Position numbers and translations under genes: made by a program. Shown piece by piece: positions 7,417 to 32,789 of a DNA stretch of 64,000 bases. The DNA comes from a virus (lineage: Duplodnaviria > Caudoviricetes). Below the pieces are notes generated by a model that was not told where the DNA came from, ran no database searches, and saw only the letters and a list, made by a program, of their open reading frames with translations. Each line of letters begins with the position of its first letter. The first letter of the stretch is position 1. The stretch spans positions 32,001 to 96,000 of the IMG/VR virus record IMGVR_UViG_3300004241_000001; one strand, 5' to 3'.

Positions 7417-7773
7417 ATGGCGTGGCAAATAAACGGAGTGACACTTGATTATGGCCCAAGTTTTCAAGATGATTTTACATATGTTGATGACAAACCCATA
7501 GAATTGACGTTTCCATCAAAAAGTATCGATAATGATTATATTTATTTAAGGAATTATGACGAATCAAAAACTATGTCATGGGATAGAGTTACATCGAGTT
7601 TGAAGACGAAATTAGTAAATTTACCTTTATTTACAAATATATCTTTGTATGATAATATATCGACTAATAATTATACTATTCAAATATTGGATAGAAAGAT
7701 TATTCCATATAAAACATTTGAAAACTCTGAAGTTTTATGGTCTGCTACTTTAAAAATAAAAGTTATTAGTTAG
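7417..7773 (+). CDS. Putative distal tail / tail-tip protein
   Basis: AAGGAG SD; MAWQINGVTL start; synteny. Confidence 0.5.
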   Translation: MAWQINGVTLDYGPSFQDDFTYVDDKPIELTFPSKSIDNDYIYLRNYDESKTMSWDRVTSSLKTKLVNLPLFTNISLYDNISTNNYTIQILDRKIIPYKTFENSEVLWSATLKIKVIS

Positions 7774-7786
7774 GATTGGTGGAAAA

Positions 7787-10700
7787 GTGGATAATTTTAT
7801 ATATCAAACAGTTAATGATAATGTATCTGGAAAATCTGGCATTGCCTCATCTTGCTTTTATTGCGAAATATTTCAAGGTGGTCTATATGATTTTCATGCA
7901 AAAAATAAGACGACATTCTCTCCTAATAATGGATATGATATTATTACTGCCACAAAAATGAGAGGAGAAACGGAAGTCTCATATTCTGTCGAAAGATCAG
8001 ATGTATCGTTATGGACGAAATTTTCTCCAATAAGTTTCCAAAAAAACTTTTCAGTTGGCCAGTCTAAAACTATAAATTTTACATTGCCTTACAATATGTT
8101 CTCTTATAATATGTCAACGGGCATATTTACTGGTAATAATGATTTAACAAATTTTAACTTTACACTAAGTAAAGGGTATTTGGTAAGGCTTTATTCTGGA
8201 TTTTTTTCAGATGATAATACTGCTGCGATATATCAAGATGACAATGGGCAACACACAGAAAGACAGTTTACAGGTGTTATAACTGATATTCAAGTTTCCG
8301 AAGATGATGGAACATTGACTATTGCCGCTTCGGATTATTCTGTAATATTCTTAAACCAATTAAATTATAATTATCCTGATATTGTTTCTTATAGAGATGC
8401 CGCAGAAGATACAGAAGACGTAATAGTTGGTGGATCAACTTATAAATCTCCGATAAGAATTCAACCAGATAATTTATTCGCTGATATCGCAAATCAACAA
8501 TTTATTCCAGCATATGATAATTGGAAGGTCATAGATGCCATAAAGGATATTTGTATAAAAAGTAATTTTCCTGTCGAAAGAATTGCTTTTGGATTCATGA
8601 ATAGCGATAAAATAAGACTTGGAAAATCAAAAGAATATCCATTTATGAAAACTCAGTCAAAATATATTCAGACCACTGCAACAACAATTGAAGAAGTGGT
8701 AAAAATATCAGGCATCGATGCAGAATCATTAGATGATGCAAAATATAAATTTGATTTTGGAAAGAACCTATGGGATTGTTTAAGCACGATCTGCGAAGAT
8801 TTTGGCTTTAGAATGTTTTTCGATAAAGATGGAAAGTTAAATATTAAAGATGTTGGAGTTGGAACATTTTACCAAGATTTTACTGGAACAGAACTTCAAA
8901 TAATAGAGAATAATGTTTATGGTTGGACTGCTCAAGATTTAACCAATTATACAAATTGCACTATAAAAACTTCAATTTCTGGATATAAAATAGAAGCAAG
9001 ATTTATAAGTAAAGATGCTGAATTGCCAGCAACAACAGTTAGAGTATATTATAACAGTAATCTTTTAGCAACTGTGAATGTTAGAGCATTATCAAAATAT
9101 GATGCCGAAACGGTTACGCTATTTGAATCAGATAGTCCATCTGGATTATTTTATTTTCAATGCGCTGATACTGCATATTTAAACTGTTTGTATTATTACA
9201 CGCCTGAGCAACAAAATAATCCGATAATAACTCTTGATACGACAAAAAACGTAAAAATAACTCAATCAAATTTATCTAACCAAGAGATACGAAATCAGGT
9301 AATATCAATAGGGAAACCAAATGCATCAGAACCATTAATATCAAAATCAATAGATTTTACATCTATTTATGGCGGAGAAAATATCATATCTTCCTTAGAG
9401 TTTTCAAATGGGATAGACGCTGTTTCTGAATCAAAAGGTGACTTTCTTAGCAATGGAAAAAAAGACAAATATGAAAATGTTATATTTAATCCGTCATCTT
9501 TTACTATAAAATGTGATGGCAGTAAACCTTCCCCCAAAATATTAAAAATATATTTTAAACAGGACTCGACATATATAGGGAAGACGATAACCATAAACAC
9601 TACTGATTCAACTTTTTCTCAAACAATAAGTCAATATGATTTGACTAATTTTGGCATGTTTATAAATATTCCGACAATAACGACAAAAGTTAATGGCAAA
9701 TATGTCATACAACTTTCATGTGCGTCTGCTCAATCTTTTTATCTTTCTGAAGTAGAATGTTTTAATAATGATATCTCTTATAATTATGCCGGCTTTCTAA
9801 AAGAACTAATGATAGTAAAAGATAACGTAAGTGACAAATCATCAAATGATTGGGCGGCAAAGACACTTATTGAAACTCATAGAGGAAACTCGCATCAAGT
9901 TGAAGCAGAGGCTATAGGAATGCCGTTTTTAAATATTGGAGATTGCATTGATATATACGCTCCAGAATTAGGTTTTGCTCAAGATAAAAATTTTTATGTT
10001 ACTGGAATTTCTGATTCAGGAACCGACATATCTTATACCTCTAAAATATCTTTGTCTGCTATTCCTCCGGTTAAATCAATCCAATGGATGCCAGATATAG
10101 ACGAAACAAAATTTACAGGAGATATATATGATTTCACAATCCAGATAAAAGAAAAAGATAACGTGTCAGGCGATGCTAAAGGCATAATCGGTGGAGAATT
10201 TGAAAATATTTCTGGATTGCCTGGAGATATGAAAAATTTTAAACATGGAAGAATGATTGCCTATGACAGTGTAAATGGGAAGATATACGCTCTTGGAGGT
10301 TCCTCTACATGGATGACAGATACATGGATAACAAGAATGACTCCAACGAAATATTTTGCAATATACGATATTTCCACAAAAACATGGACTCAGGGTTCTA
10401 TGCCAGTTGCAACTTGTTTTGGATTTGCTTGTTGTTATAACGGAGATTTGTATGTATTCGGTGGCACTAATAATGCCGCAAATATTTTAAAATATACATT
10501 TTCAACATCTACTTGGTCTAACTATGGAAGCCTGTCTTTTAATTTTCAATATGGTGGAGCGGCAATAAAAGATAATATGGTTTATTTAATATCTGGATGG
10601 TCAGGGTCAAGTAGCGAATATCCTGTCGGCGGATGCTATTCGTATGATATCTTAACAAAAACTATTACAACTCTTGCAACATTAAATTCTTCAAATGGAT

Positions 10701-19192: not shown

Positions 19193-22100
19193 ATGACTAT
19201 TAATTTCCCTGATTCAATAGATACGACCGCAACCCTATTAAATCCTTTTAATAAACATAAATGGACAAGCCGGCTTAAAACATTAATTGCTGAAGCCGAA
19301 ACAATATTAACATTAACAGATTTATCAGACATTCCTGCTGATGTTGCAAACAATTATATTGGAATTGATGATGAAATAATGTTTGTTGTTTCTATCGACA
19401 ATACTGGAAGCGATAAGAAAATAACTGTTACGAGAGGGCAAGGGAATTCTACCGCTGCTCCTCATTCTGCTGGCGTAGAAGTTCTTCAAGTTTATACCGC
19501 AGAGTACCATAAGAAATTAGTTGAAGCAGTAATAGCAATAGAAACATATGCAAAATCTGGTGGAATTGTTATAACTAATCTAACGCAAATTACAACCAGA
19601 AAACATAATGATTTGCAGGAGATAAACACTGATATAAATTATCAGCATCTTACAACTACTGAAAAATCTGATATAACTCTAAAATCAGGAAGTATAACAC
19701 AGATTACAACCCGTAATCACAATGACTTACAGAACTTAAATGCAACATCCGCTCATCCGTCAGCATCAATAGATAACACAGCTACATCTTACGGAAGAGG
19801 TTTAGCAACAACTGATAATACCGTTCAAAAGATAGCAGATAGAGTTAATCAGAATGGAACTCCTGCATTTAAAACTGATAAAAGCAAATGCAGTCTTATG
19901 TTGCCTTTCAAAGATGGATTAACTGATAACACTAATGCAATTACGCCTATTGGTTATAATACTGCTGTTAAAAGAGCAACTGACAATTTCATTAGTAATC
20001 CAGAGGCTTCTATTTCAGCTACATTAAAGCAGTTTGAAGGTGATGAGAGTAAATTTGGTTCAGGTATTGCAGTTGAGGAAAGTCGAACTAATTTACTATT
20101 GCAGTCAGATGACTTAACAAATGCGGCATGGACTAAAACTAATTGCACAGTTACGCTTGATAGAGTATTACCTGACGGCAGGAAGTTATTTAAAGTTATT
20201 TCAACAGGTGCAAATTCTTACATTAGTCAATCAATTACATTTTCAGCAACAAGTTATAATACTTCTATGTTTATTATAAATCAAAGTGGCAAAGCTATTG
20301 TCGTTGGCGAAGGTGTAGCCAATTTAATAATAAACGAAAACAACATATCAAAATTAACAAAAATAGATGGAACGGCAATATTAACATCTGGTACACGAAA
20401 TTTAACTATTGAAATAGGTTCGGCAACAGCCGGCGATACCTTTTATATTACCTCCCCTCAACTCGAAGCCGGTGCATTTCCAACATCATACATCGCAACC
20501 GGTGCAACAGCAGTTACAAGACCAACTGGAAAATTAAGCTATAATTCTTCAATACTTAATGGCAAAACCGATTTTACTTTGTCATTTTTGGCAAAACCTA
20601 ATTTCAATTATGATTCGGCAACAAGCAAGACTTTTTTATATGCCGCCAATGCAGATGATTCAAAATTTTGGGATATAGAATATTATTCACCGACAGATAA
20701 ATTTAATGCTTATATGGGTTCAGTTACAAATGTAATATCGACATCAGCCTATACTAATAATACTGATTTGCAATCCTGGAAGCATTTTGTAATTAAACAG
20801 TCAGGTGTTAATTCTTATTTTTATGTAAATAACACATTAATCGGAACAAGAACAGATGCCGAAGCAGTTGATATTACAAAATTTCAGCTAGGTTATTTTG
20901 ATGGCACAACGGCTAATAGTAATATTTCAAACTTCGCAATTTTTAATTATGCTTTAACCACAGATGAAATAGCTCAGATTTATAATTCAGGACTTGAAGG
21001 AAAGCCTATTGAATTATCTAACGATAAAACAGTAGCGGAAGCAGATAGACTTTCACCTAATATAAATGCAGGTAGTAATAAAGCACAGTTTATAACAGAT
21101 AAATCAAAGTGCGTTATGCTTCATGATTTCAAAGGAACTTTAACTGATAAATCAGCCGGCATTAGGGCAATAGGTTCTGAATCAGTTAATAAATGGACTG
21201 ATAACTTTGTTAATATTGCTACTTCTAAATCGATAGCAACTAATCTGTCAGCGACATTCTGTCAGTTTGATGGTGATGAAGCTAAGTTTGGTTCAGGCGT
21301 AGCATTAGAAGAATCAAGAACTAATCTTGCTTTGCAATCAGTTGATTTAAGCCACGCAACCTGGACAAAATCTAAATGCACAGTAACTTTGGACAAGGTA
21401 TTGCCAGACGGCAGAACCTTATATAAATTAACTGCAACTGATACTGGTTATGCAGTAATAACTCAGTCGATTGCATTTTCAGCCGTAACGCATAATTGCT
21501 CATGCTTCATTCTAAATACAAGCGGAAAGAAGTTTTACTTTGATGATACATCAATAGTTGTTATTGGCGATATGACAGCATACCCAAAATTAACAAGAGT
21601 TAACGGCCAAAGTTCGGTGGCGGCATCAACTCGCAATATAACAATAGGACTTGAAAATGCGGCAATAGGTGATGTCCTTTATTTCACATCCCCTCAAGTT
21701 GAAGCAGGAACTTTTATGACATCTTGGATTGCTACTGGCGCTACAACTGTAACTCGTCCAGTTGGAATGCTCAATTATGCTCCAAGAATAAATAAAGTTG
21801 GCAGTTTTTCAGCATGGATGAAACATTCAGTATTACCGGATAACTCACAAATGATGCCAGCAGGATTTTATACAGCTTCCGATACTCTTGCTGATTCATT
21901 TTTAATATTTGGGAGCAATGGTGCAGGATGGGGGTTCTATAATGGTGGAGGAACCGGAACTACATTTTCATACATATTGCCAGTAAATGAATGGTATAAT
22001 ATCATTATGACGTGGGATGGTTCAACAATAAGCCTTTATATCAATAAAGAATTAGTTGCGACTGCTGCTCAAGGACCAAATTTTGACAAATTAGTTAAAC

Positions 22101-22615
22101 AGAACTTTAGACCTACTGGAGTTTCATTTAAACTTTCAAATTACGTTGATTTCAATTATGTTCTTTCGACTGATGAAATAGCTCAGATATATAACTCAGG
22201 ACTTGAAGGGAAGCCAATTGCAATATCAGGTGCTGAAACCATAATACCAGTAGGTCAGTCATTACACGATACAAATTTCATTACATTCGCATCTGGTTGG
22301 GGTATTTCAACTACATATCCGAATAAGCCTACAATATCAAAAACAGCTAATGTAGCTTTAATGAGAGGTATTCTTGAATATACAGGAGCAGTCAATACTG
22401 ACGTAACTATATTTACATTACCTGCCGGAAGTAGACCATCTTTACCAGATACTTATTATCATTCGTTTGTTGGCACAGCAAGAGACTCAGGTGCGCCGGC
22501 AATGAGAATATTACGAGTTTACGGTAATGGAGATGTTGTACTAATGGCACAGGGCGCTACGATAGTTAATCCGGCGTTATCACTTGACAATATCAATTTC
22601 GTTAATGGAAAATAA
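19193..22615 (+). CDS. Fibre / receptor-binding protein with a tandemly duplicated carbohydrate-binding plus LamG module
   Basis: Two copies of GxAxEESRTNL...PQxEAGxFxTSxIATGA...LamG...DEIAQIYNSGLEGKPI; C-terminal IFTLPAGSRP fibre-tip domain. Confidence 0.8.
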   Translation: MTINFPDSIDTTATLLNPFNKHKWTSRLKTLIAEAETILTLTDLSDIPADVANNYIGIDDEIMFVVSIDNTGSDKKITVTRGQGNSTAAPHSAGVEVLQVYTAEYHKKLVEAVIAIETYAKSGGIVITNLTQITTRKHNDLQEINTDINYQHLTTTEKSDITLKSGSITQITTRNHNDLQNLNATSAHPSASIDNTATSYGRGLATTDNTVQKIADRVNQNGTPAFKTDKSKCSLMLPFKDGLTDNTNAITPIGYNTAVKRATDNFISNPEASISATLKQFEGDESKFGSGIAVEESRTNLLLQSDDLTNAAWTKTNCTVTLDRVLPDGRKLFKVISTGANSYISQSITFSATSYNTSMFIINQSGKAIVVGEGVANLIINENNISKLTKIDGTAILTSGTRNLTIEIGSATAGDTFYITSPQLEAGAFPTSYIATGATAVTRPTGKLSYNSSILNGKTDFTLSFLAKPNFNYDSATSKTFLYAANADDSKFWDIEYYSPTDKFNAYMGSVTNVISTSAYTNNTDLQSWKHFVIKQSGVNSYFYVNNTLIGTRTDAEAVDITKFQLGYFDGTTANSNISNFAIFNYALTTDEIAQIYNSGLEGKPIELSNDKTVAEADRLSPNINAGSNKAQFITDKSKCVMLHDFKGTLTDKSAGIRAIGSESVNKWTDNFVNIATSKSIATNLSATFCQFDGDEAKFGSGVALEESRTNLALQSVDLSHATWTKSKCTVTLDKVLPDGRTLYKLTATDTGYAVITQSIAFSAVTHNCSCFILNTSGKKFYFDDTSIVVIGDMTAYPKLTRVNGQSSVAASTRNITIGLENAAIGDVLYFTSPQVEAGTFMTSWIATGATTVTRPVGMLNYAPRINKVGSFSAWMKHSVLPDNSQMMPAGFYTASDTLADSFLIFGSNGAGWGFYNGGGTGTTFSYILPVNEWYNIIMTWDGSTISLYINKELVATAAQGPNFDKLVKQNFRPTGVSFKLSNYVDFNYVLSTDEIAQIYNSGLEGKPIAISGAETIIPVGQSLHDTNFITFASGWGISTTYPNKPTISKTANVALMRGILEYTGAVNTDVTIFTLPAGSRPSLPDTYYHSFVGTARDSGAPAMRILRVYGNGDVVLMAQGATIVNPALSLDNINFVNGK
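19868..22220 (+). repeat. Intragenic tandem duplication of ~1.15-kb modules (~19868-21011 and ~21088-22220)
   Basis: Protein-level similarity; the 49-bp module ends 20963-21011 and 22172-22220 differ at only 4 synonymous positions. Confidence 0.85.
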
Positions 22616-22656
22616 TAATAAAAGGCGGTTAATATCCGCCCGAACGGGCTTTTATA

Positions 22657-23121
22657 ATGATTAACAAAATTTTAAGACTTATTATAAATTCATTCTGGAA
22701 TTTAATATATCCAGAATTATCAAATAAAGAAGTAGAAGAAATATATTCTCTTTGTAAAAATCCATTTCAATTTGAAGTTTATTTATGTTCGTATGGATTT
22801 AAATGGGCCTCTGATGGACTTAACTTTAGCGTTTTGACTGACTCATTTGAAAGACCATCTCAAACTCTATCAAGAAAATGGGCAAATTGCTCTGGATTTT
22901 TAAGTCTATATTCAGTTTTATTTGATAGACTTGGAATAAAACACAAAGAAGTTTTATTATTGCACTCGGATGACAACCAATGGCATTATATTAATATATT
23001 TCAATATGAAGGTAAGTTTTATCAGCAATCTAACATCACCTTGACAGAAGTGACAAATTTTGGTAAACTGTGGCAAGAATGGAAAGATAAAGGATATTCA
23101 AAACGGATGGTGGATCTTTAA
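22657..23121 (+). CDS. Transglutaminase-like / papain-fold Cys-His-Asn protein
   Basis: WANCSGF (Cys), QWHYINIF (His), YQQSN (Asn) spacing. Confidence 0.55.
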   Translation: MINKILRLIINSFWNLIYPELSNKEVEEIYSLCKNPFQFEVYLCSYGFKWASDGLNFSVLTDSFERPSQTLSRKWANCSGFLSLYSVLFDRLGIKHKEVLLLHSDDNQWHYINIFQYEGKFYQQSNITLTEVTNFGKLWQEWKDKGYSKRMVDL

Positions 23122-23492
23122 TGTTTAAAAAAATAATTACAATCTATAATTTTATATCAAAATATTTTATGTGGATCTTTGCATTAATATTTGGAATTCT
23201 AAAAGTTGCAAAGCCATTTATAACTCAAAAGAAAACAGTAGATTTAATGAATTCAAAGCCAGAAAGTAGAAAGGGAGATATTGGTGTCGCAGACAATAAC
23301 GGACTTAAACAAGTTGAAGCAATTCCTTCAAACGCACCCAAGTCCAATGAAATTCCTGTGGGAACTATTCCAGAATCAAAAACAACCATATCTGGAGAAG
23401 GAACGCTTAAGCCGATCAATAATGGAAATCAACCAGGAGAAAGATCAACTGAAGACGTATTAAAAGATTTATCAGAAATCTTAAATAAATAA
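23121..23492 (+). CDS. Membrane-anchored protein with a disordered soluble tail (spanin-like candidate)
   Basis: N-terminal hydrophobic helix FMWIFALIFGIL; Pro/Gly/Asn-rich tail; located in the lysis region. Confidence 0.45.
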   Translation: MFKKIITIYNFISKYFMWIFALIFGILKVAKPFITQKKTVDLMNSKPESRKGDIGVADNNGLKQVEAIPSNAPKSNEIPVGTIPESKTTISGEGTLKPINNGNQPGERSTEDVLKDLSEILNK

Positions 23493-23507
23493 TTAAAGGA
23501 TGGTTAT

Positions 23508-24173
23508 TTGAAAATGAAACTAAGACTTAAAACAAAAGAAATTATCTTCGCTATTTTATTTGTAGTAATTTTAACAGGATGTATGTTCCTGTATAAAAAT
23601 TATGCAAAAGCATCAGAACTTGGTCATGTCGATTCAGTTGTAATTAAATCAAATGATGTGAAAGTTCCAAAAACTCTTATGTCAGAAATCAAACAAAAAC
23701 TTAAAAAACTTAATCGTATTGAAAAATCCGAACCAAATATCAAACTTGGTGAAATTAAAGTATTTACTGATAAAGATGGTAGAATATTTATTAATGATAC
23801 AACTTCTATATCTTTAAAACTTGCAGATATTGAATACGCCGGTGAACTTAAATTAAATGCAAAAACAGAAGTTTATCGCGTTCCAGAAAAAGAATTGCAA
23901 TGGTATAATAATTTTGGTTGGGAATATGGTATGATCCAAAAAGATAAAGATTCTTCAAAATTTGAAAAAGGCCAGTTTTATTTAACTTATGATACTCCTC
24001 TTGCATACAAAAGAGTTGGAACTTTACTTGAATTAAATAGATTTAATTATGGTGCTGGTATATTTTATAAAATTGGAAATACAAAATTAATTGGATCAGC
24101 TATTTTTAAATATGGCGATAGAATAAATAAAGAAAATGCAATGTATATGCTTGGCATTGGATATAATTTCTAA
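23508..24173 (+). CDS. Putative lipoprotein with a C-terminal outer-membrane beta-strand domain
   Basis: Signal peptide ending in lipobox LTG-C; amphipathic strands ending YMLGIGYNF. Confidence 0.5.
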   Translation: MKMKLRLKTKEIIFAILFVVILTGCMFLYKNYAKASELGHVDSVVIKSNDVKVPKTLMSEIKQKLKKLNRIEKSEPNIKLGEIKVFTDKDGRIFINDTTSISLKLADIEYAGELKLNAKTEVYRVPEKELQWYNNFGWEYGMIQKDKDSSKFEKGQFYLTYDTPLAYKRVGTLLELNRFNYGAGIFYKIGNTKLIGSAIFKYGDRINKENAMYMLGIGYNF

Positions 24174-24255
24174 AAGTATCTACTAAATGTAGATATAATC
24201 GAATCCCGGACTTACTTTATAGTTTGTTCGGGATTCGCCTTTGAAAGGCGGTTTT

Positions 24256-24375
24256 ATGTTGTTGACAGAATGGTTAATTTCTGATATTATTCTTTACGAA
24301 AACAATTCTATTCCTGACACATTAGAAATATTAGATAGAGAAATTCAATCCTTACTGAAGGAGGAAGCAAAATGA
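24256..24375 (+). CDS. Small acidic ORF (39 aa) coupled to the holin gene
   Basis: MLLTEWLISDIILYENNSIPDTLEILDREIQSLLKEEAK*; GAAAGGCGG SD; ATGA overlap with the holin start. Confidence 0.45.
   Translation: MLLTEWLISDIILYENNSIPDTLEILDREIQSLLKEEAK
24262..24290 (+). promoter_or_regulatory. Sigma70-type promoter (extended -10) upstream of holin and endolysin
   Basis: TTGACA, 17 bp spacer, TGaTATTAT. Confidence 0.5.
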
Positions 24376-24692
24376 AAAATTTTTTAATCAACTTTATTTA
24401 TAATAGAGAAGAAAATCGTGTTCGTGGAACGTTTATCCAGTTAGCGAAACTGCTATTTTTATATGCAACATTTATTTATATCCTATTAATGATATTCTTT
24501 GAAATAAAAACTGGAAAAGAAACATTATCAAGTCTTGCCACATTCATACTTGGATTGATAGGAGTTATATCAGCAGAACAAGCGTATGGGTATAAACTAT
24601 ATTCTGACCAAAAGAAATCAGAGAATGAAGTATCTCAATTAATTGATAAAGCAATGGAAATCAAAAAAGTTGGTGAAGAAAAAAATGCGTAG
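24372..24692 (+). CDS. Holin (two TM helices, charged C-terminus)
   Basis: AAGGAGG SD; two hydrophobic helices; overlaps the endolysin start. Confidence 0.65.
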   Translation: MKNFLINFIYNREENRVRGTFIQLAKLLFLYATFIYILLMIFFEIKTGKETLSSLATFILGLIGVISAEQAYGYKLYSDQKKSENEVSQLIDKAMEIKKVGEEKNA

Positions 24693-25440
24693 TTCGACAT
24701 TTAATAAAATCATAGATTATACTCTCGAAAAAGAAGATTTTAATTTTAGAAAAAGAATACAGATAGAAAGAGATCCTGATGATGCTGGTGGCACTACAGT
24801 TCTTGGACTTGATAAAGCATCACATGGCAAAACGGTCGATAGGTTAATCGAACTTGTTGAATCTGGTCGTAATAATGAAGCAATAGAAATAGCTAAAGAT
24901 GTTTATGATTTATTTTATTACTCAAAGCATAAAGACAAAAACAATCTTGCTTTATTTGACAAGATACTTGATATAAAGACTGTTTCAAAGACCTTTGATT
25001 TGTGTGTTAATACAGGCAATGGACAGGCCGCTAAATTCGTTCGCCGTGGATTAAATCATCTTGGGGCAAAACTTCCAGTTAATTCATCGTTTGATGATGA
25101 CGTTATATCAAACATAAATAAATATTCAACCGATGATTTTTGTAAATCTATTTTTTCTCAAACTAAATTGTTTGCTAAAATTATCGAAAAATTTCTTGAA
25201 ATGGCAATGGATATATCTTCATTTAATGTTATGGAGCTTCTTAGAGATGGATCCGACTTACTTAAGATATTTGAAGAGTTTAAACCGATCGCAATGATTG
25301 ATGATGATGTTCTTATGTCAACAATTCAGGAAGCAAAAGAATTCTACATTGAGATATCCAAAAAAAGGAATAACAAAAAATATCTCAAAGGTTGGCTTAA
25401 TAGAGTTTATGATATAATTGAATACAAGGAAATGAAGTAG
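24685..25440 (+). CDS. Endolysin, glycoside hydrolase family 108 with PG_binding_3-type C-terminus
   Basis: RDPDDAGGTTVLGL, FDLCVNTG and KYLKGWLNRV motifs; likely start ATG 24685 (MRSSTF). Confidence 0.85.
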   Translation: MRSSTFNKIIDYTLEKEDFNFRKRIQIERDPDDAGGTTVLGLDKASHGKTVDRLIELVESGRNNEAIEIAKDVYDLFYYSKHKDKNNLALFDKILDIKTVSKTFDLCVNTGNGQAAKFVRRGLNHLGAKLPVNSSFDDDVISNINKYSTDDFCKSIFSQTKLFAKIIEKFLEMAMDISSFNVMELLRDGSDLLKIFEEFKPIAMIDDDVLMSTIQEAKEFYIEISKKRNNKKYLKGWLNRVYDIIEYKEMK

Positions 25441-25441
25441 C

Positions 25442-25648
25442 ATGGCAACTTTTGATTTTGTAAAATTGCATAACCAATGGAAAATTCATTTAATGCAGAA
25501 AAATCTTTCCGAATGGAATGAAAACGATAAGCAAATTGCACAAATAATTGGTTTTGTTAAAAAAGATCCAGAGGAAATAATAAAATCTGCAAAAAAAGAA
25601 AATAGGTATGAAATAGAGCAACGCCTTGACAAAAATAAATGGCGGTGA
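25442..25648 (+). CDS. Hypothetical protein
   Basis: 68-aa ORF abutting the endolysin gene. Confidence 0.5.
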   Translation: MATFDFVKLHNQWKIHLMQKNLSEWNENDKQIAQIIGFVKKDPEEIIKSAKKENRYEIEQRLDKNKWR

Positions 25649-25654
25649 TAAAAT
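25626..25654 (+). promoter_or_regulatory. Sigma70-type promoter upstream of the tRNA
   Basis: TTGACA, 17 bp spacer, TGaTAAAAT. Confidence 0.6.
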
Positions 25655-25724
25655 ATGGAAAGTCTTTTCAAAATAATATATAATTTATTATTTGTAGATT
25701 ACAACAACTATTATAATCTCTAAT

Positions 25725-25795
25725 TGACTGGTAGTTCAACGGTAGAACATCGGACTTTGAATCCGGTAGTAATGGTTCGAGTCCATTCCGGTCAG
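25725..25795 (+). tRNA. tRNA-Gln (anticodon UUG), CCA not encoded
   Basis: Acceptor stem TGACTGG/CCGGTCA with G discriminator; D-arm GTTC/GAAC; anticodon arm TCGGA-CTTTGAA-TCCGG; T-arm AATGG-TTCGAGT-CCATT. Confidence 0.93.
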
Positions 25796-25822
25796 TAAAA
25801 TAAAAATAAGGATGGTTTAAAA

Positions 25823-26068
25823 ATGGATAAAGTATTTTCAAAATGTCCTATATGTAAAAAAGAAAGCACCCCTGAGTATCATACGAATCAAAGTAATTTT
25901 TGCCAGGTTAATTTCTCATTTGGCGGCAATATAAATATTCCTTATTATGGCGCTAACTTTAAAATATGCACTGACTGTGCTACCTTAGCGTCAACCGAGG
26001 ACAATGGCGTTATTGCTAAAGTAAAAGAAATGCTTGACCCAATAGTGGTCGCAGATAAGGCAATGTAG
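25823..26068 (+). CDS. Small Zn-ribbon protein
   Basis: CPIC...CTDC. Confidence 0.55.
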   Translation: MDKVFSKCPICKKESTPEYHTNQSNFCQVNFSFGGNINIPYYGANFKICTDCATLASTEDNGVIAKVKEMLDPIVVADKAM

Positions 26069-26075
26069 GTGAAGT

Positions 26076-26369
26076 ATGGAAGAAAAAAAAGATGTTAAAG
26101 TTATCGATACTTTTATTGAAAAAGTAAAAGAATCATGTCAAGATGCGTCAGGGTTTATTTGTATTGCCTTTAAGGATGTTACGCTTCAAGACGGGAAAAA
26201 AGGAATTGTATCAATAAACTCAGAACCTATTGCTGTTGGTGCAGTAAACATCTATTACGCATCTCAAAAATTAATGAATATCAGAAAACGCGCAGACGAA
26301 ATAAAAGCAAGACAAAATATTCTCTCGTCCTGTGCTTCTGAAAAAGAAGCAGAGGAATTATTGGCATAA
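26076..26369 (+). CDS. Hypothetical protein
   Basis: 97-aa ORF with AGGTG SD. Confidence 0.55.
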   Translation: MEEKKDVKVIDTFIEKVKESCQDASGFICIAFKDVTLQDGKKGIVSINSEPIAVGAVNIYYASQKLMNIRKRADEIKARQNILSSCASEKEAEELLA

Positions 26370-26406
26370 CTCACAGTTACTCATTCATTGACTTACTCCT
26401 TAATTT

Positions 26407-26440
26407 ACCGCAGTGCTAAAAGCATTGCGGTTTTTTATTT
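26407..26440 (+). terminator. Intrinsic terminator
   Basis: ACCGCAGTGCT-AAA-AGCATTGCGGT followed by TTTTTATTT. Confidence 0.85.
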
Positions 26441-26467
26441 GACAAATATTAAATATTGAATTAAAAT
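26439..26467 (+). promoter_or_regulatory. Sigma70-type promoter of the REC cassette
   Basis: TTGACA, 17 bp spacer, TAAAAT, overlapping the terminator U-tract. Confidence 0.65.
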
Positions 26468-26494
26468 TTATATTAAGAAAGGGAAGGATAGGAT

Positions 26495-26887
26495 GTGGAA
26501 ACCTTGGAAACAACAGTAGCAACTGGCTTGCTGAATAAAGCAGCAGAGACTAATGGTTTTGGCTATGGACTTGTTGGAATAATTCTTATCGTTCTCTTAG
26601 GCTTTGGATGTGTAATTGCTATTAAATTTGTTAATGCTCACTTTGAACATATAAAAGAACTAAGAGAGAATAATGCCCAACAATCAGAGGTTACTCAAGA
26701 ATTTTCAAAACAAATTAGTAATCTTGCAGCGACGATTCAGGTTGTAACGCAAGCATTAAATGAAAATAAATCTTCTACCTCACAATCTTTGGCAGAGGTT
26801 AAAAACCAACTTACTTCTATATCAAATGTAACAATAGAGGTAAAATCTGCTATTGGCTTTTGCGTAGGAAGAAGAGATAGTAAATAA
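26495..26887 (+). CDS. Single-pass membrane protein with a coiled coil (holin-like)
   Basis: TM helix GLVGIILIVLLGFGCVIAI followed by a heptad helix. Confidence 0.55.
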   Translation: METLETTVATGLLNKAAETNGFGYGLVGIILIVLLGFGCVIAIKFVNAHFEHIKELRENNAQQSEVTQEFSKQISNLAATIQVVTQALNENKSSTSQSLAEVKNQLTSISNVTIEVKSAIGFCVGRRDSK

Positions 26888-26900
26888 AAGAGGCGTAAAA

Positions 26901-27575
26901 ATGTTAGAGTTTTCAAATGAAATATTTTCTAAAAATACTTTATATTTATCCATAGCATCCCTATCCGCTATATGCTTTTTTATAATATGTGTTGTAATAT
27001 TTTATTTAATTAAAGATAGATTTAGTAGAGGATATAATAAATCCATAGATACAATTGAGAACATAAAAAAGATCAAAAGGCATATCGAGCAAATGTCTAA
27101 TATTACAGATATGATTCTTCATCATGCAATGGATTTTATCGAAGATGGAGATAGTGTTGTTTTATCTGTTGAGGACGTTAAAGAAAATTTCGACCATATG
27201 AAAACAATAATCGAAATTCAATTTAAACAAAGATTTGGTCATGATCGTCTTCCATTTAAATTCTTATGGTGCAGTAGTTCAGCTCAAGCAAATAAACTTA
27301 TTCCAGAGATAACAAAAAGAGGAGCATTTTTGAAAGCTGCAATATGTGATATGGATTTAGGAAGCACAGGTGGCGATATAAATGACGTTATAAAAGAACT
27401 TGCCTCTCGTAGCGTTCCAACAATAATCTACACCGGATATGAAAAGAATGAATTTGAAAAGAAGATATTGCCAGAACTTAAAGCAAAAGTAATTTATCAA
27501 TACAAAGGATATAACAAAGAGATGGCAGAAATTCTTGAGCATCTTGTTGAGGGCAAGCTAGAAATAGTAAAATAA
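26901..27575 (+). CDS. Membrane-anchored response-regulator receiver (REC) domain protein
   Basis: N-terminal TM helix and coiled coil, then VVLSVED (acidic pocket), AAICDMDL (phospho-Asp), IIYTG (Thr), YQYKG (Lys). Confidence 0.75.
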   Translation: MLEFSNEIFSKNTLYLSIASLSAICFFIICVVIFYLIKDRFSRGYNKSIDTIENIKKIKRHIEQMSNITDMILHHAMDFIEDGDSVVLSVEDVKENFDHMKTIIEIQFKQRFGHDRLPFKFLWCSSSAQANKLIPEITKRGAFLKAAICDMDLGSTGGDINDVIKELASRSVPTIIYTGYEKNEFEKKILPELKAKVIYQYKGYNKEMAEILEHLVEGKLEIVK

Positions 27576-27581
27576 AAAGTA

Positions 27582-28088
27582 ATGGAGATGGTTCTTTTGG
27601 AGACAAAAACTTATATACCAGAATTCGTAGAATGTTTAGAATGCAATCGTAGTTTTGACTTGAAAAATTCATCATTATGGGGAAATGAAGATAGAGTTTG
27701 CAGATGTTGTCAGTGTAAGGTCGATAATAAAATACAAACTTGTAAAAGAGTATCTTGCAACTTTCATAGCAAGCTACAGGATGATTTTATTATTGACATT
27801 GATGAAAATGACGTTCGTGACATTAAACCTATCTCAAACCGTCAGGAAATGATTTTTAATCCAGAAATTTGTTGTTCTATATGCAGACAAGAAATACCAA
27901 AAGATTATCTTTATAACTTTTTAAATATCAAACATTCCTTTAATGGAATTACAAAAAGAATAAAAGTAAAAGTTTGCCAGGAATGCTTCGAAGAATTTGA
28001 AGAAATGCTAAACTTAAATAAGGTGGAAATCTATGATAGTTCAGAAGAAATGCTCGCATTGCCAGAGGAGGGAGAAAGAGCCGCTTGA
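27582..28088 (+). CDS. Cys-rich multi-Zn-finger protein
   Basis: CLEC, CRCCQC, CKRVSC, CSIC, CQEC. Confidence 0.6.
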   Translation: MEMVLLETKTYIPEFVECLECNRSFDLKNSSLWGNEDRVCRCCQCKVDNKIQTCKRVSCNFHSKLQDDFIIDIDENDVRDIKPISNRQEMIFNPEICCSICRQEIPKDYLYNFLNIKHSFNGITKRIKVKVCQECFEEFEEMLNLNKVEIYDSSEEMLALPEEGERAA

Positions 28089-28245
28089 GGATTCTTCATA
28101 TCACATGATAAATCTTGTCGCAATGAATGAAAAAGACGAGAGTTATACATGTAGATTTGAGCTGTGCAATCATTGTATGAGCAATTTTGTATTAATTTTT
28201 TCTGACTTTTCAAACGATGAATCGATATTTGACCTAATGAAATAA
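28033..28245 (+). CDS. Small Zn-ribbon protein
   Basis: CSHC...CNHC; AAGGTGG SD; resembles the C-terminal finger of the upstream ORF. Confidence 0.5.
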   Translation: MIVQKKCSHCQRREKEPLEDSSYHMINLVAMNEKDESYTCRFELCNHCMSNFVLIFSDFSNDESIFDLMK

Positions 28246-28280
28246 AAGAAAGACGGGTTTATAGCCCGTCTTTTTATTTT
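28244..28280. terminator. Bidirectional intrinsic terminator where the two gene arms converge
   Basis: AAAAGAAAGACGGGTT-TAT-AGCCCGTCTTTTTATTTT. Confidence 0.85.
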
Positions 28281-28284
28281 GCAA

Positions 28285-28356
28285 TTATTTTTTCTTTGCA
28301 ACTTTCTTTACCGCTTTTTTGGCTTCTGCGGCCTTTACTGCTGGTTTTTTGCCCAC
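28285..28356 (-). CDS. 23-aa Lys/Ala-rich histone-H1-like peptide (not in the ORF track)
   Basis: GGAGGTG SD 7 nt before GTG; MGKKPAVKAAEAKKAVKKVAKKK*. Confidence 0.65.
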   Translation of the reverse strand: MGKKPAVKAAEAKKAVKKVAKKK

Positions 28357-28362
28357 TTAGAA

Positions 28363-28560
28363 TCACCTCCGAATTCGAACTTTACTTATATCTGCGTTAA
28401 AAATTACATTTACCATTTGGTTTACTTTATCGACTGTATCTTCAAAATCTTCTCCGATGAATTCTTTGTTATATAAGGTTAGATGTTTGTCATCGCATTT
28501 AAAGCATAAACTATTGTAGTTATAGTGAGGCATTCCACATAAAAGACATTCTTTAAACAT
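28363..28560 (-). CDS. Small Zn-finger protein
   Basis: CLLC...CFKC; GGAGG SD. Confidence 0.6.
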   Translation of the reverse strand: MFKECLLCGMPHYNYNSLCFKCDDKHLTLYNKEFIGEDFEDTVDKVNQMVNVIFNADISKVRIRR

Positions 28561-28589
28561 GAATTTCCTCCAAAGAATTAGGCTAAGAA

Positions 28590-28618
28590 ATCATATCATT
28601 ATTTAGATTATTTGTCAA
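28590..28618 (-). promoter_or_regulatory. Sigma70-type promoter
   Basis: TTGACA, 17 bp spacer, TGaTATGAT on the - strand. Confidence 0.55.
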
Positions 28619-28896
28619 ATATTTGAGATTTTTATATTGTTTCTATCTAATTCTATAAGTAGTATTCTTATAATATTTTCTACCGACAATGATTTTATTG
28701 AATCCCTTGCAAAGCTTAAAATTATTTCTTTTTTCGGTCGTTCGATACTATAGCTCATGCTATCAAATAATGTAGCCCCTCTATCATAAATTCTAAATTC
28801 TGCTATGTCTCCATTAGTGCATAAATATCTTCCGTCACATAGTTGTTTTAAAATACTATTAAATTCATAAATTGTTATTATCATTTGTTCATCCAT
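28615..28896 (-). CDS. Hypothetical protein
   Basis: 93-aa ORF with AAGGAG SD. Confidence 0.55.
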   Translation of the reverse strand: MDEQMIITIYEFNSILKQLCDGRYLCTNGDIAEFRIYDRGATLFDSMSYSIERPKKEIILSFARDSIKSLSVENIIRILLIELDRNNIKISNI

Positions 28897-28907
28897 TTTT
28901 ATCTCCT

Positions 28908-29333
28908 TTAAAGATCCTTATTTATATCGCATACATAAACGTTATCTTTATATATTAAATCAGGGCAAAAAGAATTACTAGGTGGCATGTAATATTCTGG
29001 AATATCTTCAAGGTTTATTTCATAGGCTTCAAATGATTCTTTGCTAGAACAAATATTTACAATATATATCGTTTTAGTTGTTTTTAATATATCTAAATAT
29101 GATATTTTTTTATCAAAAAAGTCTTTTAATATTTTTTCATCGATTACCATTTCAATAAATTGATCTGTGTCATTTTTATCATCGCTATCTATTAGATACG
29201 ACAATAGAAGCTTATCGTCAGACGTATATCCATAATGAGATATCGGAAATTCTCCATAATGAACTATTCGTGATGGCGGCTTCATTTCTGAATACTTATT
29301 TTCTATTAACTTTTTGTCTTTTGTGTTTATCAT
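28908..29333 (-). CDS. DUF6575-like protein, tandem paralog 2
   Basis: HYGEFPI...ISYLDIL...DIPEYYMPPSNSFCP; likely start ATG 29333 after AAGGAG. Confidence 0.55.
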   Translation of the reverse strand: MINTKDKKLIENKYSEMKPPSRIVHYGEFPISHYGYTSDDKLLLSYLIDSDDKNDTDQFIEMVIDEKILKDFFDKKISYLDILKTTKTIYIVNICSSKESFEAYEINLEDIPEYYMPPSNSFCPDLIYKDNVYVCDINKDL

Positions 29334-29353
29334 ACTATTCTCCTTAAAATATT

Positions 29354-29845
29354 TTATAGTTTTTCTTTTATGCTGCAAATAAAGAAATTTTCCTTTAATA
29401 ACTCTGGACAAAATGACTTTTCTGATGGTCTATAATTAATGGGGATATTATCAAATTCAATAATATATGATTTAAAATATGTTTTGTCAAATGAGCAATC
29501 AACAATAAATATACAGTTTGCATCTTCTAATATATCTAAATATGTTATTTCTTTACTAAAAAATTTTTTAATGGTTTTATTACTAATTACAACTTCTAAA
29601 AAACGATATATTTCCCTATCGTTATAACTATCAACTAAAGAACATAATAAAATATCATTATTATCATTGTAACCGAGAAAAAGTATCGGCTTTTCATCAT
29701 AATGTAATATTTTGAATAATGCTGTAACTTTTGAATATCTCTCCTTAACTGGATATTTATTTTCAAGTGTCTCTGGTTCTCGATTATTCGCTCTTCTTAA
29801 TACTTTAACAAAATCATCAAGGCATTTTTCTTCTATTCCATTCAT
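29354..29845 (-). CDS. DUF6575-like protein, tandem paralog 1
   Basis: HYDEKPI...ITYLDIL...NIPINYRPSEKSFCP. Confidence 0.55.
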   Translation of the reverse strand: MNGIEEKCLDDFVKVLRRANNREPETLENKYPVKERYSKVTALFKILHYDEKPILFLGYNDNNDILLCSLVDSYNDREIYRFLEVVISNKTIKKFFSKEITYLDILEDANCIFIVDCSFDKTYFKSYIIEFDNIPINYRPSEKSFCPELLKENFFICSIKEKL

Positions 29846-29859
29846 ATTATGCTCCTTTT

Positions 29860-30621
29860 TTAAAATAATTCTGGATTATCTTCTTTTAATATCAGATACA
29901 AGTAATAAACATTCAATACTGCATCTGCCTTATCGTTGTCGTGATATGTAAAATCAAATCCAAATGTTTTATTTACAAAGTTTATTACCAATATTTTCTT
30001 CGCAAAATCATATTCAGTTATTGATGGTTTAATTGTACGATATTTTGTAAAATCAATCTCAGGATATTTATTGCGATAGTTCCCCGGGTCGTTGACGTAC
30101 TGTTGATATGTCATTCCTTCAAGTAGATGTCTTTTTGCCGGAGTTCCATCTTTCTTTATCTTTACTGGCTTCTTCGATATCTCTATCTGTTTCTTTTCAA
30201 ATTGAGATTCAGAGAGTATTCTATCGATATTAAATCCAAATTTTGCACGAATTGATGAAGCACATTTATATTCTACAAGTGGAGATGACCGTCTTTCTAA
30301 TTTGTAACGAGAGATTGCTTGTTCCACAACTGCCTGTATCTTTACAAGAGGTTTTACAGCGTCAAGATTATTTTTATTTGCAAATATCTCTTCAATGATA
30401 AACGCATCAGGTTGATAGAATTCTATATTTGTTTCAACGAACTCTTGAATTTCATTTAAAAGCTGTCCTATCTCTTGTGGAGTCGTTTTGAAAGATGGTT
30501 TCATAAACGAAGTATTTAACTTAAATTGATCTTTTAAATAACTATCAGATTTTGATACATCTGAGTCTAATACCGCAATTGCACACCCTTTAGTTGATAG
30601 GTCTAATGACATTAATTTCAT
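29860..30621 (-). CDS. RuvC-like Holliday junction resolvase with a large insertion
   Basis: MSLDLSTKGCAIAV, FIIEEIF and DNDKADAV catalytic motifs. Confidence 0.75.
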   Translation of the reverse strand: MKLMSLDLSTKGCAIAVLDSDVSKSDSYLKDQFKLNTSFMKPSFKTTPQEIGQLLNEIQEFVETNIEFYQPDAFIIEEIFANKNNLDAVKPLVKIQAVVEQAISRYKLERRSSPLVEYKCASSIRAKFGFNIDRILSESQFEKKQIEISKKPVKIKKDGTPAKRHLLEGMTYQQYVNDPGNYRNKYPEIDFTKYRTIKPSITEYDFAKKILVINFVNKTFGFDFTYHDNDKADAVLNVYYLYLILKEDNPELF

Positions 30622-32760: not shown

Positions 32761-32789
32761 ATTTTATCAAATAATTTTAAAACTGTCAA
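32761..32789 (-). promoter_or_regulatory. Sigma70-type promoter of the RHH-rep unit
   Basis: TTGACA, 17 bp spacer, TGaTAAAAT. Confidence 0.7.

Follow-up and report, generated by a model that had tools for sequence, protein, structure and literature searches.

We analysed a stretch of 64,000 nucleotides (nt) of DNA from an uncultured phage, hereafter the window. The phage genome is a complete IMG/VR record of 115,414 bp with direct terminal repeats, of which the window spans bases 32001-96000. Beside its lysis genes, the window carries an operon of four genes, A to D, the second of which (B) is predicted to encode a receiver (REC) domain at the membrane. As judged from sequence comparison and a structural model, what is new here is a membrane-tethered, kinase-less, and highly divergent receiver family that is embedded in a conserved phage lysis module. 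As a plausible but tentative reading, we propose that A to D form an insulated operon within the lysis module and that B, phosphorylated by a host donor, tunes lysis via A or the holin. The features of the operon, with sizes in amino acids (aa), are the following.

26407-26431 (+): terminator-like hairpin with an 11 bp stem and a T-run, which closes the upstream unit (tRNA-Gln, 81-aa and 97-aa genes)
26439-26467 (+): sigma-70-type promoter TTGACA-17-TAAAAT for the four-gene operon, found by pattern scan
26495-26887 (+): gene A, open reading frame (ORF) of 130 aa
26901-27575 (+): gene B, ORF of 224 aa, predicted membrane-tethered stand-alone receiver
26940-27011 (+): single transmembrane (TM) segment of B, residues 14-37, from hydrophobicity
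27012-27152 (+): linker helix of B, residues 38-84, coiled-coil-like, from its 3.5-residue hydrophobic periodicity
27153-27551 (+): REC-fold (beta-alpha)5 domain of B, residues 85-217, as modelled; the D150 codon is at 27348-27350
27582-28088 (+): gene C, ORF of 168 aa, soluble, Cys-rich
28033-28245 (+): gene D, ORF of 70 aa, Cys-rich, in another frame than C
28249-28273 (reported by the scan on the - strand): hairpin terminator at which the rightward structural/lysis block meets the leftward replication block

The fold of B was predicted with AlphaFold2 (AF2), using seven homologues. The model has a predicted local distance difference test (pLDDT) score of 83-90 over most of the domain and shows one continuous helix over residues 2-79, followed by the order b1-a1-b2-a2-b3-a3-b4-a4-b5-a5. 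The strands (E) and helices (H) are located at E85-90, H94-112, E120-124, H127-139, and E143-150 for the first half and at H160-169, E174-178, H182-193, E197-201, and H205-217 for the second. In a Foldseek search with this model, nearly all matches were receiver domains (E 1.5e-6 to 4e-4). VIA-align gave Z scores of 12.1-13.2 and root mean square deviations of 2.3-3.0 Å over 113-127 residues spanning 83-221, and all 50 of the 50 best PDB entries were receivers. The first-pass annotation of this DNA, which was made from the sequence alone, had named the absence of a REC fold as a refutation of its proposal; by the AF2 order, Foldseek, and VIA-align, the fold is present.

The same annotation had listed a full set of canonical REC residues, and in the model these are found at the C-terminal ends of the predicted strands b1, b3, b4, and b5. 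E91 and D92 follow b1 and are equivalent to D12 and D13 of CheY. D150 ends b3 and takes the position of D57, and T178 ends b4 at the position of T87. Y199 lies on b5 (Y106 in CheY) and K202 follows it (K109), with the same Y-to-K spacing of 3 as in CheY. An hhalign comparison of the B family with the single sequence of E. coli CheY (E 0.11) can be used for the register only, and in this register D12/D13, D57, and T87 agree. With relatives down to ~35% identity, D92, D150, T178, Y199, and K202 are invariant, and position 91 is Asp or Glu in 9 of 9 sequences. The phospho-acceptor site of B, as read from the alignment and the model, is complete and looks intact. The family signature is CDM(D/N/E)LG, the a1-b2-a2 stretch is longer than usual, and B departs from the canon at Gly203, which replaces the usual Pro after the conserved Lys.

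The Pfam family PF00072 (Response_reg) leaves B unmatched at E 1 for the whole protein and at E 10 for the C-terminal domain alone. Its gathering threshold of 30.2 bits is not reached by the relatives P0009 (26.3 bits) and P0008 (18.4 bits), and B itself gives no match. The family profile of B likewise found no match among PDB sequences at E 10. Distant relatives, in contrast, match PF00072 at E 9e-6 and 3e-3 and are joined to the profile of B at E 2e-13 and 3e-17, and therefore provide a transitive sequence link of B to PF00072. On account of the modelled fold, the residues, and this link, B is a member of the REC (CheY-like) superfamily; membership in the curated Pfam family fails on sequence.

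The B family is tiny: an exhaustive HMMER search over 1.84 billion cluster representatives yielded only three 50%-identity clusters, namely the group of B itself and, at a greater distance, two soluble proteins (166-171 aa). The latter share ~35% identity with B and keep all six REC positions. No relatives of B or A were found in IMG/VR, GTDB genomes, or deposited phages.

B and A share a design that had been described as a TM segment followed by a coiled coil, and this holds: each has one hydrophobic segment and then a helix with a 3.5-residue periodicity. The charges next to the TM segment of B are +1/-2 N-terminally and +4/-1 C-terminally. According to the positive-inside rule, the receiver part is predicted to be cytoplasmic. 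The Fourier power of the 3.5-residue periodicity in the B linker was reached in 0 of 500 shuffles. In A, the TM segment (~residues 22-43) and a conserved NG[FY]GYG motif are accompanied by an 80-residue heptad-periodic helix that follows the membrane segment. Its Fourier power was also reached in 0 of 500 shuffles, although a cruder contrast test of the a/d positions gave no heptad support (p 0.33). The helix is low in charge and rich in Gln, Ser, and Thr, and Cys123, seven residues from the C-terminal end, is invariant. TM-proximal heptad-periodic helices are thus common to A and the linker of B. The idea that the N-terminal part of B is a duplicate of A was rejected, as there is no similarity between them.

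The lack of a histidine kinase, noted in the first-pass annotation for the window, extends to the whole genome: in a six-frame search of the complete 115,414-bp phage, HisKA, HATPase_c, and Hpt gave no match at E 1. Because of this, B is regarded as an orphan receiver, invisible to Pfam, and any phosphodonor for B would be the host's. For the identity of the host, the ESM Atlas offers a weak lead, as A falls into unnamed clusters there, some of which are from Campylobacterota. The NAD-ligase was considered for the same purpose and set aside as uninformative, since it is ~30% identical to unrelated taxa.

The operon had been described as an insulated unit of four genes, and all four ORFs are present at their claimed coordinates. 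It lies between the hairpin at 26407-26431 with the promoter at 26439-26467 and the hairpin at 28249-28273, which shows T-runs on both strands when read by eye. At the latter hairpin, the rightward block, which encodes giant structural proteins and a tail protein as well as the lysis proteins, gives way to the leftward replication block. Exact TTGACA-N17-TAnAAT sites occur 4 times in the window against 0.26 expected, at 972, 25626, and 26439 (+) and at 32761 (-). As they front structural-, lysis-, and replication-side operons, the phage apparently depends on host sigma-70-type promoters throughout. Three relatives (L007, L003, and L001) keep the pair of hairpin and promoter in front of A. Gene A starts with GTG, 6 nt behind a Shine-Dalgarno-like AAGGA. 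Gene D shares its first 56 nt with the 3' end of C and has a Shine-Dalgarno sequence of its own, AAGGTGGA, within C. The ratios of nonsynonymous to synonymous substitution rates (dN/dS) are 0.05-0.11 for A, 0.06-0.09 for B, 0.22-0.39 for C, and 0.22 for D. By this measure, purifying selection acts on all four genes, and for A and B its strength matches that seen for the holin-like and endolysin genes.

In C, 12 Cys residues are invariant, enough for three Cys4 sites, and D shows the pattern CxxC...CxxxxCxxC. The first-pass annotation had called both of them Zn-finger proteins. The Cys patterns stand, and from them we infer that C and D bind Zn. The AF2 model of C was poor (pLDDT 46), its alignment was too variable for scanning, and the ESM Atlas gave only unnamed look-alikes. 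The overlap of C and D is kept in L003, L007, and the distant L009. D is the least stable part of the cassette, as it is truncated in L001 and L002 and disrupted in L008. In L008, a 386-aa TnpB/IS200-605-like ORF (910-2070) lies between C and a 46-aa remnant of D (2245-2385), so a mobile element has disrupted D and left A to C intact.

The position beside the lysis genes, which had also been claimed, is borne out by a holin-like gene and an endolysin gene of the GH108 family upstream. The features in question are the following.

24372-24692 (+): holin-like protein of 106 aa with two TM segments and a charged C-tail, directly upstream of the endolysin; its homologue in L009 is at 8539-8895
24685-25440 (+): endolysin of the GH108/PG_binding_3 type without a TM segment (phrog_315, E 8e-13)
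25823-26068 (+): Cys-rich protein of 81 aa; in L009, its homologue is found two genes upstream of the A-like gene

Relatives of the cassette show how closely it belongs to these genes. Close relatives (59-88% identity) come from sewage and other metagenomes and retain the order A-B-C-D (L001-L004 and L007). In L001-L003, the holin-like gene, the endolysin gene, and a 55-aa gene immediately precede the cassette. A distant lineage (L006 and L009-L011), a phage with a T4-type portal, has the order A-like gene, soluble REC gene, GH108/PG_binding_3 endolysin gene, with an 8-nt overlap at each junction. In L009, the A homologue (179 aa) is the second gene upstream of the endolysin, within a single run of overlapping genes. 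The endolysin that overlaps the REC gene in L009 is a full-length homologue of the window endolysin, and homologues of the 81-aa Cys protein, the holin-like protein, C, D, a 123-aa protein, and an outer membrane protein (OMP)-like lipoprotein are found within 5.7 kb, those of the holin-like gene, C, D, and the OMP-like protein even inside 4 kb. In a third lineage (L005), a C homologue follows the receiver gene.

A lack of linkage between the two membrane genes had been named as a second refutation; A and REC are linked in every relative with enough flanking DNA. Because the A-like gene, the REC gene, and the GH108 endolysin gene overlap in the distant lineage, the link to lysis is stronger than the first-pass annotation could tell, and REC is, from the gene overlaps, translationally coupled to the endolysin in one lineage. 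As the gene order differs between lineages and the set nevertheless stays with the endolysin, we read A to D as part of a conserved lysis module and not as a free-standing signalling island. A tblastn search of deposited phages with E. coli CheY was tried as a neighbourhood survey and dropped, since it returned mostly unannotated host-like fragments.

Further observations concern the same region. The window carries a tRNA-Gln(UUG) with an exact TTGACA-17-TAAAAT promoter to itself (25626-25796); the endolysin unit lies on one side of it and the 81-aa and 97-aa genes on the other, and an Rfam scan of 22000-30000 found this tRNA only. The window region 23121-24173 encodes a TM-anchored protein of 123 aa and, after it, a lipobox protein of 221 aa that ends in an OMP-type beta-signal (GIGYNF). 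Both are kept in the distant L009 (9575-9949 and 10176-10805), where the counterpart of the 221-aa protein carries a plain signal peptide, lacks the lipobox Cys, and ends in GAGFRF. L009 also encodes a secreted 3D-domain protein just after the endolysin (7680-8132; Pfam 3D 24.6 bits, peptidase-like PHROG matches), which is absent from the window.

In the proposed mechanism, B would be an orphan response regulator with a single domain, which its TM helix and coiled-coil linker keep at the cytoplasmic membrane face. A would be its bitopic inner-membrane coiled-coil partner, and the two would form the core pair. D150 would be phosphorylated by a host donor, which may be a membrane histidine kinase, an Hpt protein, or acetyl phosphate. 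The T178/Y199 switch would then alter the a4-b5-a5 face of B or the packing of its linker and change how B engages A and/or the holin. As a result, the time or the probability of membrane permeabilisation would be set by the signalling or energy state of the host. C and D would serve as conserved Zn-type accessory proteins. That the cassette reads or drains a host phosphorelay and gates its holin-like partner, as the first-pass annotation had suggested, we purely infer. It is possible, if doubtful, that some phages have a phosphorylation-gated lysis clock, in which an orphan receiver, charged by host kinases or acetyl phosphate, would work through a coiled-coil membrane partner to hold or release the holin, and the time of the burst would track the signalling or energy state of the host.

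Several points weigh against this proposal. B has no PF00072 match even at E 10, and across its family the residue after the conserved Lys is Gly or Lys. The charges that flank the TM segment of A are ambiguous for orientation; if the coiled coil of A is periplasmic, it cannot pair with the cytoplasmic linker of B. A two-TM holin-like gene already occupies the holin position directly upstream of the window endolysin, and lysis may therefore need none of A to D. In the window, ~1 kb, a tRNA, and a terminator lie between the endolysin and the cassette, which has a promoter to itself. Lastly, the two lineages are themselves distantly related and have a similar overall genome layout (a large structural protein is 24% identical), and for this reason part of the clustering may be inherited synteny instead of functional coupling.

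Under another explanation, B is a phosphate sink or decoy. It would compete with host response regulators for a membrane histidine kinase, e.g., an envelope-stress or chemotaxis kinase, and blunt the late-infection response of the host, and the proximity to the lysis genes would reflect shared late timing and no gating of the holin. The intact-looking active site of a protein without an output domain or a phage kinase would suit such a role, the cytoplasmic-side tether would place B near membrane kinases, and the window cassette is equipped with a separate promoter and terminators. We nevertheless consider it rather unlikely. Membrane proximity is not conserved, since the distant relatives are soluble, and in the distant lineage the REC gene is translationally coupled between the A-like gene and the endolysin gene. 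The obligatory partner A is left unexplained, and as no host is assigned, no target kinase can be named.

A further explanation shifts the main role to A, which would be an envelope disruptor, either i-spanin-like or another late membrane-fusion or breaching protein, with B as a non-phosphorylated degenerate receiver or pseudo-receiver that serves only as a scaffold or assembly factor in the cytoplasm. Lambda Rz has an N-terminal TM segment, a coiled coil, and a conserved C-terminal Cys, and the Rz-type i-spanins resemble A in the N-terminal TM segment, the coiled-coil body, and the Cys near the C-terminus, which is invariant in A. Among the PHROGs, A gives weak matches to Rz-like spanins (E 4e-4 to 1e-3). 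Matches to phrog_739 (Rz-like spanin) cover the TM segment and the first helix, with E 4e-4 for A and E 1e-4 for its distant homologue. These values are at noise level for coiled-coil proteins, as they are no better than those to unrelated coiled-coil families such as tape-measure proteins. Holin families in Pfam and PHROGs left A unmatched. B, for its part, would fit a pseudo-receiver in that it stays below the Pfam thresholds and has no Lys-Pro motif; that all six REC functional positions are invariant at ~35% identity is hard to explain for a pseudo-receiver. In contrast to lambda Rz, A has no embedded or adjacent lipoprotein gene (no + strand ORF of at least 30 aa is found inside A, and the next gene is the REC gene), its helix is low in charge and Gln/Ser/Thr-rich, and its orientation is ambiguous. 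The 123-aa protein and the OMP-like lipoprotein at 23121-24173 are the better candidate pair for an envelope-spanning (spanin-like) role than gene A. We regard the explanation as unlikely.

That an A/B membrane complex prevents other phages from entering, or senses and counters host defence, unrelated to lysis, would agree with small membrane proteins under their own promoter at a module boundary, where accessory genes are often held, and is very improbable given dN/dS values as low as those of core lysis genes and the conserved coupling to the endolysin in distant lineages.

As for the genome as a whole, the window has a G+C content of ~31%. The sequencing runs that carry the phage DNA are freshwater metagenomes, no RNA runs are among those listed, and no close relative of the phage was found among the deposited phages searched. 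At 28908-29845 (-), adjacent ORFs of 167 aa and 163 aa both match a single 141-aa ORF of L007 (40% and 66% identity), and the pair is, on sequence comparison, a tandem duplication specific to this genome. A 713-aa helicase at 53120-55261 (-) has its best deposited-virus matches in an uncultured 595-kb phage and a Microcystis phage. Next come archaeal lipothrixvirus helicases for the branch migration of Holliday junctions, at 22% identity across 87% of the 713 aa.

Among the life-history traits of a lytic phage, the timing of lysis is the main one. To our knowledge, the known controls of lysis timing, i.e., holin allele clocks, antiholins, and the lysis inhibition of T4 and N4, do not use host phospho-signalling. 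A receiver in a conserved lysis module, without a kinase and with all of its phospho-switch residues retained, offers a specific mechanism, accessible to experiment, for reading the two-component or acetyl-phosphate status of the host at the membrane, and its gene context suggests that these phages may tie lysis to the phosphorylation state of the host. If true, the proposed tuning of lysis by B would be a new way of regulating lysis and would account for the recurrence of orphan receivers in phage genomes. The receiver superfamily is at the same time extended to a membrane-tethered phage family that Pfam does not see. A full-text literature search found no paper on a REC-fold protein in a phage lysis cassette.

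Nearest in kind to B are the single-domain response regulators that act by contact. CheY, Spo0F, DivK, CpdR, and EpsW share with it the REC fold, the canonical residues, and the lack of an output domain, and EpsW of Myxococcus acts on a membrane glycosyltransferase (PMC12802240). B differs from these regulators as it is phage-encoded, has no kinase in its genome, is tethered by a TM segment and a coiled coil, and is below PF00072 detection. Compared with CheY-type regulators, it also has Gly for Pro after the Lys, a longer a1-b2-a2 stretch, and a constant partner, as it is always paired with a bitopic coiled-coil protein in the lysis module.

Receivers without kinases are known from other phages. 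The Alteromonas phages V22 (gp30) and A5 (gp11) encode CheY-like proteins that have been called auxiliary metabolic genes (PMC10579305). Like B, they are stand-alone receivers of lytic phages, have no kinase, and are flanked by small uncharacterised proteins; unlike B, they are soluble, are recognised by InterPro (IPR001789), and belong to a tail-fibre/host-recognition module (PMC10579305). Searches of deposited phages detected nothing similar in sequence to B or its relatives. The cREC family, a cyclic-phosphate-processing receiver of phages, is a predicted enzyme linked to NAD+/ADP-ribose and RNA-ligase genes (Iyer et al. 2021, PMC7824862). It is likewise a divergent phage REC fold that is never linked to histidine kinases (PMC7824862), but B keeps the signalling Thr/Tyr/Lys set and has lysis, membrane, and Cys-rich neighbours, and cREC is not among its Pfam matches.

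With respect to function, holin T of T4 with the antiholins RI (periplasmic) and RIII (cytoplasmic), and gp62/gp63 of N4, provide an analogy to B without homology (PMC12642591). The 'Receiver domain' described for N4 (PMC12642591) was considered as a REC match and rejected, since it shares the name only and is not a REC fold. In T4 and N4, accessory proteins of the lysis module bind a membrane lysis protein and so determine when lysis occurs, and one of these accessory proteins binds from the cytoplasmic side. The signal in T4 is superinfection, sensed in the periplasm, whereas the proposed input of B is phosphorylation of its receiver. By this analogy, B would resemble a cytoplasmic antiholin such as RIII of T4, but one driven by phosphorylation.

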